From contig JBBKWS010000120.1 of assembly GCA_037969075.1 (NCBI GenBank), positions 1 to 43,075 on the forward strand: 43,075 bases of DNA. The letters are read 5' to 3'. A program made the position numbers. Below are positions 1 through 9,000 of the stretch, one piece after another. This DNA is from Bdellovibrionales bacterium. Its GTDB lineage: Bacteria; Bdellovibrionota; Bdellovibrionia; Bdellovibrionales; UBA840. Positions within the stretch are counted from its first letter, which is position 1. Each line of letters starts with the position of its first letter.

Positions 1-3000
1 ACACCTGTTGCTGGTGGTCTTGATATGTCACAATTCAAATTCTTACTAAAGTCTTTAGTTACCCACGGTAAGCGTATTATTGCTTTTGATTTAAATGAAG
101 TTTCTCCAGGTGCTAATTATGATCTTACCAATGAGTGGGACGGCAACTGTGGTATGCGCGCGCTATTTCAACTATGTGGCTGGTGTATTGAGTCTCAAAA
201 AAAATAGCTCATAAATTACGAGCTATTTCTCTGGTTTGTTATTTCTATTTACATTCTGGCGTATTTTTTAGCTACTGACTCGCGAATCTCTGCACCCTCT
301 ATACTTAAGCGAGTCCATGGAATAGCTCTCAGTCTTTCAGATTCAATAAGCTCTTCAGTTTCTTCGCAGATGCCATAAGTACCATCTTGAATTCTAGCTA
401 GAGCCATTTCTATTTCAAACAACTGTGAGCGAAGTCTATCTTGCATTGCTACAAAGTCACTCTCCGCCAAAATACGCGCTGTTTGATCAGCTTCATCACC
501 GCTTTTTTCGTTATGGAGAAGCCCTTCTTTTCCTTCACGTACGCGGTTTAATATCTCTTCTTTCTTCGTAACTAATGTATCTCTACACTCTTCAATAAGT
601 TTTTTCGATAAGTCAGCCATATTCCCCCCTTGGTATCCAAGATCCGAATTATAAATTCTTTTCTTGGTGGCTAATCGCTTAAGAATTCTAAACAAGCCCC
701 CGCCCGAATTCCTAGCATTGTGTTCCCCATCCCCTAAATACTGGATCAAAGGCCGGTTTCTCGTATCGATTCCTGTTACAAGAAACTCGGTGTGTATAAA
801 TCAGCTTGAAGGGTGGTTTTAGTAAATATTTTTTTATACATTTTACATGTTAATGCGCAATATCATTATACCAAATTTAAGAAAACTACCCCAAAAAATT
901 AAATGTGCGCAATCAATCTGCATACCTAACTCTATACTAACATAATTTAAGCTAAAGAATTCCTCGTAGATTACAGGAATAAATCGAAACTAGACTTTAT
1001 AGATCTTTATCTGAGGGCTCGAATGGTCCGGTATTTAATCTCTCTAAACGCTTGGTTTCTATATCAATGACTTGCGCTTCCCTGACCTCTTTTTGCTCAA
1101 ATCCATCATCAAAGCTCGAAAATTTGCTCGTATTGTGGGCATGAAACCCACCTGAAGAACCCTGTGTGAAAGTGTGAACTTGAAATTTACCGGCTTGCAT
1201 AGATTTTTGTAAAGATGATTTCAAGTGATTAGCTACCCATGAGCGCAGGAAAGGAATTAGTAACAACATGCCCAATGTATCAGTAATAAACCCAGGAATA
1301 ATTAGTAAGACCCCACCCAAAAACACTAAAATGCCGTGCAAAAGAGACTCCGCAGGCAAAATACCACGTCCTGTGTCTTTACGAACCTGAAATAAAACTT
1401 GTTTACCTTCACGGCGAGTAAATATAATCCCTACAAAAGCGGTCAGTAGTACGGCTGAAAATGTGTTCCAAGTACCAATCTGTTCACTCACCTCAACAAG
1501 TAGAAGAACCTCTAGAATCGGAATGGATACAATTGTTAATAAAATAAACCACATATAACGTTGGATATACTACAAGGTATTTTCAGAAGAAAGTGCTTTC
1601 TTACTATCTAAAAAAGAAGTCATTGAGGATATCTCAATTCCTACCGATTGCAGTAGGCGGATAGAATCTTTACAACGATAGTCATGATTATAAAATACCT
1701 TTTTTACCCCACCTAAATTAATCAGTCTTTTAGCACAGGCTGAACAGGGCAAATGGGTAACGAACACAACTTTTTCTAAAAACCTCGGGGAATCACAGTT
1801 AATAACCGCATTCTCTTCAGAGTGAAGACAACCACAGTTTCCAGTTTCATCACGATCACAAGAGTTTGTTAAGCCAGATGCATTTCCATTATACCCAACA
1901 GCCAAAACTTTTCGATAATCTGTAGAGGTGATAACTGTGCCGACTTGCAGCCTTGCGCAAGTGGCACGTTTTGCCAGCTCTAAGGCGAGGCCCATATAAA
2001 TTTCTTCAAAACTTGGACGAGACATATTAATCCTTTAACTCTAAAACAATCGGGCAATGATCTGAACCTTCAACTTGATCCATGATATCAGCAGATTTAA
2101 TGCGATCTTTTAAATCTGGGCTAACGCTTATATAATCAATTCTCCAGCCCTTGTTGCGCGGTCTCGACATCTGGCGATAAGACCACCAAGTATAGGCATC
2201 CGCCTTATCAGGATGCATGTGTCTAAACGTATCTACAAACCCTAAGGCAAAAAACTTATCCATCCATGCGCGCTCTTCTGGCTTAAATCCGCTCTCTCCA
2301 TCCAATCTCACTGGATCATGAATATCAACTTTAGTATGAGCAATATTATAATCCCCTAATACTACTATGGAGTCTCCGTTAGCTAAACGCTTGCGAAAAT
2401 GTTCATACATGGTTTCTAAAAATTCCATTTTATAAAGATGACGATCTTCACCCATTGCACCGTTTGGAAAGTAGATGTTGTACAAAGAAAAGTCTTTATG
2501 CTCAGTAATTACAAAACGTCCTTCTGAATCAAATTTTGTAATACCAATTCCGTGTTTAACCGACCTAACTGGCTCTTTAACTACCGTTAGCGTTCCAGAG
2601 TAACCTTTTTTTTCTGCTGTTGACCAAAAAGCCTCTACGCCATCAAGGTCTTCTGGCTCAACCTCTACCTGTGAGGGATGGGCTTTTGTTTCTTGCACAC
2701 AAAATATATCAGCCGATTCTTTTTCGACAAAATCAATGAAGCCCTTGTTTATACAAGCTCTAATGCCATTGACGTTCCACGATATAATTTTCATAGGCTG
2801 TTCATAGCAAAGCTTGTGAATCGATACAATTTAATGACACAGATCGTTGCCACTATTTCTACAGCACATCAGGTGCTAAAAACACTCATGGCTACATACT
2901 TAGACTCTAAAGGCATTGTGTTCTTACCCAGCATGGAGAACCTGCTACAATTACCAGATATCCACAGGGATATCGACAATCTGCTATGGATTGTGGATGA

Positions 3001-6000: not shown

Positions 6001-9000
6001 TCTGGCTTGGTGATCAGTGGCTACTTCAAGCACCAAACAGAGCCTTCTTGCCCTGCTCTGACAATGGGCTGTGGAAATGGTACCGTCTTTACAGATCTCA
6101 CAAACAAGCGATACAGTTTTTAGCGGATCAAACGAATTCACAACTAGATCAGCCGCAACTTCTTGATGTGATCAGGCAACAAGATTTCGATGATACAAAT
6201 CACTTTGCCGCTGTGATTGGAAATCCCATTAACCATAGTTTAAGTCCTGGCAAACACTATGATTTTTTCTTACCATATCGCATTCCATTTTACCCCGTCC
6301 CATTAAAAACATGGAATATTCAAATTTTACAAAAACTTGGTTTACTATTTGCCGCCGTTACCTCTCCCTTTAAAGAAGATGCTTTTAAAACTGCGAGCGC
6401 GCTGTCAACTGATGCTGAAAAGTTAAAAAGCGTAAACACTCTCGTATTGAGTGATACAATTTATGGTTATAATACTGACGTGAGTGGACTAAAGGCGACT
6501 CTCGCCTACGCCAAAGGAATAACAGTTGTTTGGGGTGGTGGCGGGCTGCTCTCTTCTATCCAAGCAAACTTACCAAGTGCCTATGCCTATTCTTCACGAA
6601 CAGGAACTGCTAAAGGTGAGGAAATAACGACTTTTCCAGAAACACTAATCTGGGCTGTGGGAAGAACTCACTTTGAAGTGCAGGGCGTCTTTCCACCGTC
6701 AGACTGGAAGCCTAAAGTTATTATTGATATGAATTACACGGATGATTCCTACGGCAAGGCCTACGCACAAAGTATTCAGGCAGAATACATTTCAGGCATG
6801 ACTCTTTTTTTAGAACAGGCTAAGAAACAACAAGAACTTTGGGCCCCTAAAATACCTAGCTAGGAGACATATGTCAGCCAACTCATTTGGTAATATTTTA
6901 AAAATGATAAGCTTTGGAGAAAGTCACGGCAAAGCCCTCGGAGTTGTACTTGAAGGTGTGCCCGCAGGACTTAACGTAAATCACGAATTACTTCTTAAAA
7001 ATTTACAAAGACGTCGGCCCGGTAGTTCAAACATTGTTAGCGCCAGAGATGAATCCGATGTACCAGAAATTCTTAGTGGGGTCTTTGAAGGCAAGACCAT
7101 TGGTACTCCGATTTCAGCTATTGTTTATAATAAAGATGCAAAATCAGAAGATTATAATGCCATTAAAGATTCGCATAGACCAGGACACGCTGATGATGTG
7201 TGGAAAAATAAATTTGAACACTCTGATCATAGAGGCGGCGGCAGATCCTCTGGCCGCGAAACCGTAAGCCGAGTCATTGCTGGTTCATTTGCACAAATGA
7301 TCTTAAATGCTATCTCTCCTAAAAGCTCTGTTTTTGTTTTTTCAGAAAAAATTTTCACTTACTCTATTGGTGAACACTTGCCGCTTATACTTAAAAAATT
7401 AGATGGCATGACTCAATTTGAGGGACAAGATTGGATTGATTCTTTTCCTGCAAAATTTCCTGCCTTAGAAACTTCAAAGCAAATTGAACAACTTCTTTTA
7501 GCTGCCAAAGAACAAGGTAAGAGCTACGGAGGAAGTTTAATTGTTTACATAACGAATCCTCCGAAAAACTTAGGCCAACCTGTGTTTCATAAATTAAAAG
7601 CTGATCTTGCCTCAGCTTATTTAAGTATTGGAGCAACTAGCTCGTTTGAGGTTGGGATTTCTGATGCCAGTACACAAGAAGGAAGTCATTTTCATCAACA
7701 AGTATCCAGTGAGAAGTATGGCGGTATACGCGGCGGAATCTCAACCGGTGAGAATATGTTACTGCGTATTGGATTTAAACCAACATCTACTGTTCTAGAC
7801 ATAGCTAAAAAAGGACGCCATGACCCCTGCATTCTACCGCGCGCTTCAGTGGTTGTAGAGGCAATGACCAATTTAGTCTTAGCAGACCATACCTTATGGT
7901 CAAGGCTAGATAAGATTTAGCCAATAATTACATGTACTTATGTGCATAAACTGATTACAGAAAAAAGATTCTAATCTTGCAAAAATTCTTGTTCTACAAA
8001 GCTTATACGAGTACAACATTAGTCATGTCTGATCTAAGTAATATGTTTACGCAACTAATGAATGGCTTTTCTAAACTCAATATAACCGAGCGTTACCAGC
8101 GCTTGCTTGAGCTTGGCGCGCTTACAAAATCAGAAATTCAGTTTTTAAAATCTGGCGGCATAAAAGACAATGATTTAGCTGAACATTTAGTAGAAAATGT
8201 AATTGGCTACTTTCAATTACCCTTAGGCGTAGCTACAAACTTTAAAGTAAACAATAAAGATTATATTATTCCCATGGCAGTTGAAGAAACTTCTATTATC
8301 GCCGCCGCTTCTAAAACCGCAAAGTGGGTTCGAACAAACGGTAAGATTACCACCCGCTCTTTAGGAAAAAATATTATTGGGCAAATCCAAATTGCAAAAG
8401 CAAAGAATTTTGCAGCCAGTAAAGAACTTATTTTAAAAAACAAAGAACACTTAATTGCTATCGCTAACCAAGTCCTAAAAGGTCTTGTTGCTCGTGGTGG
8501 CGGAATACGTGATCTAGAAGTTCGCGAGCTTGACAGAGAAGATGGTACTAACGACAAGATGTTAGTCATCCACATCTACTGTGACCCATGCGAAGCCATG
8601 GGTGCAAACTTAATCAATCAAGCATGTGAAGCTTTAAAGCCGCAAGTAGAAAGTATTACAGGCGAAACTGTTAACCTTTGTATTTTGTCAAACCTTGTAG
8701 ACACAAAGCTTACAGAGGCTATCGTAGAAATTTATGATATCGATGAGTCTCTTGGAAGAGGCATAGAAGAGGCCTCTAGATTTTCCATTGTTGATCCATA
8801 CCGTGCTGCAACCAACAACAAGGGTGTTTTAAACGGGATTGATGCTGTTTTGATTGCTTGTGGAAATGACTGGAGAGCGGTAGAGGCAGGTATACACTCG
8901 TATGCTGCCAGAGATGGAAAATATAGATCTATTACTCAGTGGAAGCTTGAAGGAACAACCCTAGTAGGAAGATTAGTCGCACCTATTGTTGTAGGTACTG

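Follow-up and report, generated by a model that had tools for sequence, protein, structure and literature searches.

An aro operon in AROM gene order from a Bdellovibrionales bacterium encodes a predicted trifunctional enzyme with a probable divergent type I dehydroquinase domain

Eukaryotic AROM (Aro1; PDB 6hqv, 7u5s, 7tbv) carries five domains per chain, ordered N-DHQS-EPSPS-SK-DHQD-SD-C (PMC6851490), and its dehydroquinase (DHQase) is of type I. The Arabidopsis DHQ dehydratase-shikimate dehydrogenase (PDB 2gpt, 2o7s) has the last two of these domains (D and E) in the same order. A clostridial DHQD-SK (CASP15 T1180) is a prokaryotic fusion of a type I DHQase and a shikimate kinase, with two functions and a conventional type I DHQase domain, and in its description (PMC10792529, section 2.5) prokaryotic fusions are spoken of as bifunctional only. 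No description of a chain joining shikimate kinase, dehydroquinase and shikimate dehydrogenase (K-D-E) was found in the literature searched, which did not extend to subscription papers on prokaryotic aro architectures or bioRxiv supplements, nor was any paper found there that applies 'trifunctional' to these three enzymes together; the available text of PMC3018139 and PMC12827227 does not treat such a fusion.

The window (the whole 43,075-nucleotide stretch of contig JBBKWS010000120.1 that was analysed; its scan excluded one ORF, 34459-35871) contains four consecutive rightwards genes with the following features.

2834..3931, + strand: aroB, 3-dehydroquinate synthase (step 2), 365 aa with its ATG start at 2834 (PF01761, E 1.8e-29; PF24621)
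3928..5118, + strand: aroA, EPSP synthase (step 6), 396 aa, TTG start (PF00275, E 8.5e-47)
5115..6863, + strand: K-D-E fusion (kinase, barrel, dehydrogenase), a single 582-aa chain
5115..5597, + strand: fusion domain 1, shikimate kinase (step 5), residues 1-161 (PF01202, E 2.5e-15)
5610..6194, + strand: fusion domain 2, predicted barrel of a divergent type I dehydroquinate dehydratase (step 3), residues 166-360 (fold, AroD alignment, hhalign)
6195..6863, + strand: fusion domain 3, shikimate dehydrogenase (step 4), residues 361-582 (PF08501, E 8e-10; TIGR00507, E 2.5e-22)
6871..7920, + strand: aroC, chorismate synthase (step 7), 349 aa (PF01264, E 2.4e-94)

The aroB/aroA and aroA/fusion junctions are 4-base stop/start overlaps, the aroA stop overlapping the ATG of the fusion, and the 7-base gap between the fusion and aroC contains AGGAG. 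These genes are best explained as an operon supplying steps 2-7 of the shikimate pathway, whose product chorismate is a precursor for aromatic compounds. The overall span and the Pfam matches agree with the earlier note, which had placed aroB and aroA directly upstream of the fusion in B-A-K-D-E order. The order is that of AROM, here spread over genes B and A and the K-D-E chain, so that the five activities assigned would lie on three genes and not on one chain; the corresponding K-D-E part of AROM is about 700 aa long.

Pfam recognizes only SKI (9-143) and Shikimate_dh_N (367-443) in the fusion, as reported before, and calls no DHQase family. The first domain has a kinase fold (matches to AroK at Z 15.7-17.5) with the Walker A (G7-K13), DxD (D31/D33), R/E (R57, E60) and glycine (G79-G81) motifs and R130, all invariant in 120/120 sequences. 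The third contains an S/T/K/N/D/Y/Q shikimate site, whose positions we take to correspond in role to those of AroE (S375, T416, K420, N441 and D455 in 120/120 sequences; Y541 and Q568 in 119/120), and a Rossmann glycine loop at 474-477. Its fold matches reach Z 20.9 and it scores under the NCBIfam equivalog cut-offs.

The middle domain is predicted to fold as a (beta/alpha)8 barrel whose nearest structural matches are AroD enzymes. A single-sequence fold of this domain was unusable (pLDDT 41), so the full-length model was used for the fold search; built from 113 rows, it has a pLDDT of 96.7 and pTM of 0.93, in keeping with the pLDDT of 96 given earlier. With residues 166-360, the seven top matches among 48,161 representative chains are all type I DHQases (Z 12.2-15.1), led by Aquifex 2egz (Z 15.1, 2.8 A, 184 aligned residues), and other barrels score Z 11.1 or less. 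Sequence evidence is weak (hhalign E 1.3e-4, probability 53%), and an ESM score of 0.80-0.81 is a lead only. The barrel shares the fold, Schiff-base lysine, histidine and substrate-binding residues of AroD (PF01487; Aquifex 2egz and E. coli), but differs from solved type I DHQases in its 13-17% identity, shortened loops and position below Pfam detection.

Eleven positions match in an alignment with E. coli AroD: E46, R48, D50 and R82 with E198, R200, D202 and R226; D114, H143, K170 and R213 with D246, H264, K285 and R324; and F225, S232 and Q236 with F335, S342 and Q346. AroD S21 aligns with T171. The AroD-type E46 is present in 41/42 alignment rows, and R48, D50, D114, H143, K170 and R213 in all 42. 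Of the eight barrel residues named as invariant in the earlier note, seven (E198, R200, S262, H264, K285, R324 and Q346) are so in 120/120 sequences, as is R226, whereas D202 is found in 119/120. AroD E46, R48, R82 and Q236, which bind substrate, have counterparts in E198, R200, R226 and Q346. R324 stands at the position of the substrate-binding R213 (PMC13247285), and K285 and H264 at those of the catalytic residues Lys170, which forms the Schiff base, and His143 (PMC4114755). In the predicted model K285 is on strand 283-286 and H264 directly follows strand 260-263. Glu86, beside the histidine in AroD, has no counterpart in the K-D-E family, which has a gap there in the E. coli AroD alignment. 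E86 is dispensable in type I dehydroquinase, and its position is Q in fungal AROM rows.

PF01487 has no match in the fusion protein or in the precomputed domains of 120 homologues, and PF01487 and PF01220 together give 0 matches across the whole genome, reproducing the absence noted earlier; because the genome is 90% complete, absences of genes are soft. The fusion occurs in 42/45 other genomes of the order (5/5 in the earlier, smaller sample) and in 56/201 genomes of the phylum (9/40 earlier). Neither DHQase family is found in any of the 56 fusion genomes, while one or the other is present in 72/84 genomes with only weak K/E matches; these genomes are kin and not independent. One genome of the same order that is without the fusion (G114) carries a type II DHQase.

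The fold, the active-site residues and this distribution strongly support the earlier suggestion of a hidden type I DHQase, and the middle barrel is very probably a divergent member of that family; we are accordingly confident that the K-D-E protein would act as a trifunctional enzyme. The alternative is that the barrel is a DHQase relic, serving as a non-catalytic scaffold or sensor or acting on another substrate, with step 3 supplied by an unknown enzyme or by an intermediate from prey. Such a relic might escape Pfam as this barrel does, would fit the lack of any DHQase family among the 25 families listed for 80 members, and could have lost E86 and, in the subfamily typified by locus L106, the Q236 column. 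It would be hard put, however, to keep the catalytic K and H and the binding R and E invariant among sequences only ~35-40% identical, or to account for 56/56 fusion genomes with no alternative DHQase, and we regard it as very unlikely. As a dehydroquinase, the barrel would bind 3-dehydroquinate, form a Schiff base at K285 and, with H264 assisting, release 3-dehydroshikimate; the dehydrogenase domain would reduce this to shikimate, presumably with NADPH, and the kinase domain would yield shikimate-3-phosphate, the substrate for AroA.

Relatives of the fusion occur in three arrangements, B/A/KDE, B/AKDE (of several origins) and BA/KDE, with slashes marking gene boundaries. The four-domain A-K-D-E chains of the earlier note are confirmed, with EPSP synthase in 6/120 listed homologues and not 2/120, and the series extends further, to the two-piece BA/KDE locus L106. 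Either directly upstream of KDE or fused to it, aroA is found in 70/79 classifiable loci (upstream in 7/10 previously), and B-A-K-D-E order is kept in most. Every AROM junction (B-A, A-K, K-D and D-E) is fused in some bacterium of the clade. Other fusion orders are common (D-E-A, D-E-K and E-K), and one K-D-E chain, P0495, has canonical domains. Among the matches listed, clade chains have three to four domains and the longest is 1113 aa, without DHQS. No five-domain bacterial chain of the clade was found among 120 of 184 matches up to 1700 aa, among 120 of the 122 long proteins with DHQS, or among the 150 top-ranking representatives. Of the six five-domain proteins examined, three are named AROMs from fungi and one is a fragment that clusters with these; the other two, almost identical to each other and AT-rich in appearance, fall with AROM in the EPSPS tree.

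AROM structures are Foldseek's best matches to the fusion by E-value, and the model aligns at 18.6 A with 507 residues of Chaetomium AROM and at 3.3-3.4 A with 399-402 residues of the Arabidopsis enzyme (Z 19.3-19.5), close to the values in the earlier note (516 residues at 18 A for AROM; 402 residues at 3.3 A, Z 19.9, for the plant enzyme). D-E superposes as one body on the plant enzyme and not on AROM; the fusion differs from the former in its additional N-terminal kinase and 19-20% identity. The plant-like packing is a prediction, and the predictor could have learned it from the plant structure. The AROM homodimer runs through DHQS and DHQD.

Per-domain trees, which the earlier note lacked, and trees of joined domains were built by quick searches on 25-71 hand-picked rows (5-9 of AROM and none of plants) whose branches are long and whose composition is uneven. 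For EPSPS, AROM (96) is placed with enzymes of the E. coli, Ralstonia and Streptomyces types, and the aroA of the K-D-E operons forms a separate clade (98); grouping that clade with AROM is rejected (AU p=0.00065, 37 rows). It is also rejected with five domains joined (p=0.0086), a result that probably leans on EPSPS. DHQS (p=0.21), kinase (0.47), barrel (0.72) and dehydrogenase (0.23) singly, and K+D+E joined (0.106), do not reject it. The description 'AROM-like' thus stands for gene and domain order; kinship is unsupported, given the EPSPS and five-domain rejections and the plant-like D-E packing.

Convergent fusion of known enzymes is the best reading of the K-D-E chain, and its order was likely reached independently of AROM. 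An argument from gene order giving odds of 1 in 120 was dropped: the B-A and D-E pairs are commonplace elsewhere, so that AROM order needs just one of ~six block arrangements. A shared origin of the K-D-E unit and the C-terminal half of AROM, with the B and A parts replaced later on one side, would explain the identical domain order, the retention of B-A-K-D-E order in most loci, the existence of the two-piece L106 locus and the K+D+E tree's failure to reject the grouping, and the constrained barrel tree is in fact slightly better (4.85 log-likelihood units). Yet no free tree groups the family with AROM, P0495 is placed elsewhere in the barrel and K+D+E trees, D-E packing differs in the model (rmsd about 18 A), and profile scores set ordinary bacterial enzymes nearer than AROM (kinase, 43-48 bits for AROM and 52-66 for most bacterial AroK; dehydrogenase, 45-56 and up to 82). 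The shared neighbours are also common elsewhere, and we consider this origin unlikely; were it true, the precursor of AROM would have a living relative in this family.

That the entire five-domain operon is a sister or donor lineage of AROM would account for the complete colinearity (PMC6851490) and for each junction being fused in some clade bacterium. The EPSPS and five-domain rejections, the ~40% identity of Talaromyces AROM EPSPS to E. coli-type AroA compared with 24-26% to A-K-D-E chains along the best stretch, and the lack of a five-domain clade chain among the matches listed have already largely refuted it, barring a long-branch artefact in EPSPS placement, and we give it hardly any credence. 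Descent of K-D-E from a bacterial operon ancestral to AROM, as the B/A/KDE, B/AKDE and BA/KDE series across Bdellovibrionota and sister operons might suggest, is doubtful; in that event a two-piece bacterial AROM would survive, one frameshift short of a five-domain chain. As a whole, a trifunctional operon enzyme that reached AROM order by convergence is the best explanation (probability roughly 0.7). The fusion would have arisen within a bacterial clade that evolves fast and in whose aro operons overlapping genes fuse repeatedly, aroA joining KDE several times and aroB joining aroA in a sister group.

The chemistry of the fusion is ordinary. The family makes up a predicted type I dehydroquinase subfamily, several hundred clusters in size, that is missed by Pfam, and provides natural fusions of three and of four enzymes as well as a two-piece locus, all in AROM order, a series that is a direct test of whether convergence favours that order; these proteins are also compact scaffolds for channelling work. 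A DAHP synthase gene lies elsewhere in the genome, adjoining menF-menD, and pabABC is present; neither of the prephenate enzymes (dehydratase and dehydrogenase) nor MqnA was found in this 90% complete genome. Chorismate may flow mainly to menaquinone and folate (pABA) and not to Phe or Tyr. Bdellovibrio bacteriovorus, a model predator, belongs to the K-D-E family, and the reaction table of its published metabolic model (iCH457) has 3-dehydroquinate made and 3-dehydroshikimate used with no reaction linking them, a dehydroquinase gap that the hidden barrel would fill. Because this domain would complete the pathway, the finding suggests that Bdellovibrio-type predators synthesise for themselves the chorismate that goes into menaquinone and folate.

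The 582-aa K-D-E fusion is encoded among aro genes transcribed in the same direction (B, aroB/DHQS; A, aroA/EPSPS; K, shikimate kinase; D, type I DHQase; E, shikimate dehydrogenase; C, aroC; hyphens denote fused domains):

2834-3931, + strand, aroB; overlaps aroA by four bases
3928-5118, + strand, aroA; overlaps aroB and the fusion gene by four bases each
5115-6863, + strand, K-D-E fusion (582 aa); overlaps aroA by four bases
6871-7920, + strand, aroC; downstream of the fusion gene

The earlier note held that Pfam sees only a kinase and a dehydrogenase in the fusion, and we recovered the same spans (shikimate kinase, 9-143; dehydrogenase N-domain, 367-443) with no match in the gap between them, and no match to DHQase families PF01487 and PF01220 across the genome (90% complete). 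The nearest named relative among the matches listed is labelled Bdellovibrionales (78% identity). Public databases call family members 'shikimate kinase', 'shikimate synthase' or 'shikimate 5-dehydrogenase/shikimate kinase', and none of the names listed includes a dehydratase.

Elsewhere in the window, an HMG-CoA reductase gene starts 56 bases past aroC and after it come genes for an epimerase and for a long aromatic amino acid hydroxylase (585 aa) with an unannotated C-terminal part (7977-12145). Genes for pantothenate and CoA synthesis are tightly clustered at 19083-23659 (a DUF2520 protein, panB, panC, split coaBC, type III pantothenate kinase and panD). Open reading frames (133-501 aa) that lack any Pfam match at E 1e-5 lie at 15325-16425, 18186-18896, 23666-25171, 30234-30821, 39335-40465 and 40625-41026, and the sole match of a 546-aa product (26980-28620) is short and adenosine-deaminase-like.

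The fusion very probably carries a dehydroquinase invisible to profile libraries. Its predicted structure (113 input sequences) has a pLDDT of 96.7 and pTM of 0.93, and when residues 166-360 of this model were searched against 48,161 representative chains the top seven were type I DHQases (Z 15.1 to 12.2; 2.8 A over 184 residues for the Aquifex enzyme), with unrelated barrels ranking below at Z 11.1 or less. A 42-row alignment pairs E. coli AroD E46, R48, D50, R82, D114 and H143 with fusion E198, R200, D202, R226, D246 and H264, and K170, R213, F225, S232 and Q236 with K285, R324, F335, S342 and Q346; E86 has no counterpart in the family and S21 aligns with T171. Type I DHQases form a Schiff base on Lys170 with His143 assisting (PMC4114755). 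E198, R200, R226, D246, H264, K285, R324 and Q346 are invariant in all 120 family members, which bears out the invariance claimed earlier for E198, R200, H264, K285, R324 and Q346. Profile-profile comparison of the barrel with DHQase gives E 1.3e-4 at 53% probability, modest taken alone, with kinase and dehydrogenase controls at E 0.28. The kinase and dehydrogenase domains of the fusion retain their motifs.

The fusion is real and conserved across an order. Scored at E below 1e-100 over the full length, it is present in 56 of 201 genomes of the phylum: the window's genome, 42 of 45 others of the order, the single further genome of the class, and 12 elsewhere. PF01487 occurs in four of the 201 and PF01220 in 68, and none of these 72 genomes contains the fusion. 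Genomes with only weak kinase or dehydrogenase matches have a recognised DHQase in 72 of 84 cases; five of the remaining 12, those retrieved, have a D-E-A fusion, which in two exceeds the Pfam cut-off in a protein scan. No p-value is attached to this distribution because the genomes are kin. From 119 confirmed loci 80 were kept, of which 77 bear names of Bdellovibrionota type and two B. bacteriovorus strains are among these, and 79 were classified after removal of one broken locus. In 67 aroA lies immediately upstream and in three it is part of the fused chain, with aroB upstream in four and other arrangements in five; downstream lies aroC in 57, something else in 14 and a contig edge in eight. 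The complete order B, A, K-D-E, C is found in 51 of the 79. In some assemblies the fusion is split or broken (L073:5905-7853, L136:5078-6889, L169:3314-4590 and L069), either by fission or by assembly error.

Shikimate-pathway fusion is frequent and takes many domain orders. The proteins gathered include 49 A-K-D-E chains. A fast tree built from K-D-E parts (228 rows, 48 A-fused) sorts the A-fused rows into three clades (20, 18 and 7 rows), with three singletons left over that may be frame errors, and the A-fusion label needs six changes, four forced by starred branches. B-A fusions predominate among the 120 long proteins listed in an AroB profile search, with named examples among the matches listed from Myxococcota, Persicimonas, Lujinxingia and Bacteroidota. 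At metagenome locus L106:5995-11277 a B-A fusion (759 aa) overlaps a K-D-E fusion (650 aa), itself followed by aroC, giving the AROM order in two pieces; locus L112 combines an incomplete D-E gene with aroC and B-A, and B-A stands alone in six further loci with long flanks. The L106 K-D-E protein heads a second subfamily, sister to the Bdellovibrio type (99, starred), of which the matches listed include 52 representatives with E no worse than 1e-30, fragments counted. Among the matches listed, no protein of this clade joins all five domains. D-E-A and E-K fusions occur in the phylum of the window's genome, where six loci (L085-L090) have a trifunctional D-E-A protein (855-918 aa) followed by a free aroK, its DHQase exceeding the Pfam cut-off in three. 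Among 150 representatives were nine D-E-K proteins (P0424, P0436, P0452, P0453, P0475, P0479, P0482, P0493 and P0494) and one K-D-E protein with canonical domains (P0495). Further aro-fusion proteins are P0456 (AroC-chorismate mutase-E-K), P0333 (E-K-B) and P0386 (K-D-E plus methyltransferase).

Eukaryotic AROM is a single B-A-K-D-E chain (order given in PMC6851490), and the earlier note left open whether the K-D-E family is its kin or an independent fusion. We put the probability that the family's AROM-like order arose independently at about three in four. In an EPSPS tree (71 rows, MurA root) the AROM clade (96, starred) sits among E. coli-, Ralstonia- and Streptomyces-type enzymes, and the K-D-E operon family forms a separate clade (98, starred) with B-A fusions, D-E-A fusions and four other rows of the phylum. 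Constrained-tree (AU) tests, which like the trees were done by quick searching on rows where AROM is sparsely sampled, branches are long and composition is uneven, reject a clade of AROM and the K-D-E operon family for EPSPS (37 of the 71 rows; p=0.00065) and for all five domains joined (p=0.0086), but not for the other domains singly: free DHQS trees keep the two apart, yet p=0.21, and values are 0.47 for the kinase, 0.23 for the dehydrogenase and 0.72 for the barrel, where the AROM-constrained tree is slightly better. K, D and E joined give p=0.106. A single origin of the K-D-E unit and AROM is unlikely, and kinship of the whole operon with AROM very improbable. AROM scores under most bacterial single enzymes with the family profile, and the predicted D-E pair of the fusion superposes as a single body on the plant (Arabidopsis) enzyme but not on AROM. 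Since B-A and D-E are common as blocks, the AROM order is roughly one arrangement in six.

AROM-type B-A-K-D-E chains are also present on nine IMG/VR contigs labelled giant-virus genomes (L194, L209, L219, L251 and L270-L274; all but L272 named GVMAG), their ends cut by the flank retrieved; the EPSPS tree places them with eukaryotic AROM, and they are either viral or host contamination. A literature search found no paper on such chains in giant viruses.

Section 2.5 of PMC10792529 describes bifunctional fusions of prokaryotic aro genes as exceptional and assigns AROM to fungi and protists. No account of a trifunctional K-D-E family was found in the papers searched, and the fusion is probably undescribed so far. 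In the part of the B. bacteriovorus model iCH457 drawn on here, 3-dehydroquinate appears solely in the synthase row and 3-dehydroshikimate solely in the dehydrogenase row, and Bd3494, which we infer from locus-tag order to be the K-D-E fusion, is assigned kinase function alone (PMC7529429). Its supplementary file 7 lists Bd3496 as adenosine deaminase and Bd1508 as shikimate dehydrogenase; judged by position, Bd3496 should be aroA.

In the proposed pathway AroB would form 3-dehydroquinate, the barrel would dehydrate it via K285, the dehydrogenase and kinase of the fusion would take the product through to shikimate-3-phosphate, and AroA and AroC would complete chorismate. The fusion probably represents three known enzymes, of predicted activity, in a new bacterial arrangement. 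In the window's genome (90% complete) DAHP synthase adjoins menF-menD and a pabABC cluster is present (gene names beyond Pfam matches are readings of the translations), and searches for prephenate dehydratase, prephenate dehydrogenase and MqnA found none; the most likely destinations of chorismate in this organism are therefore menaquinone and folate.
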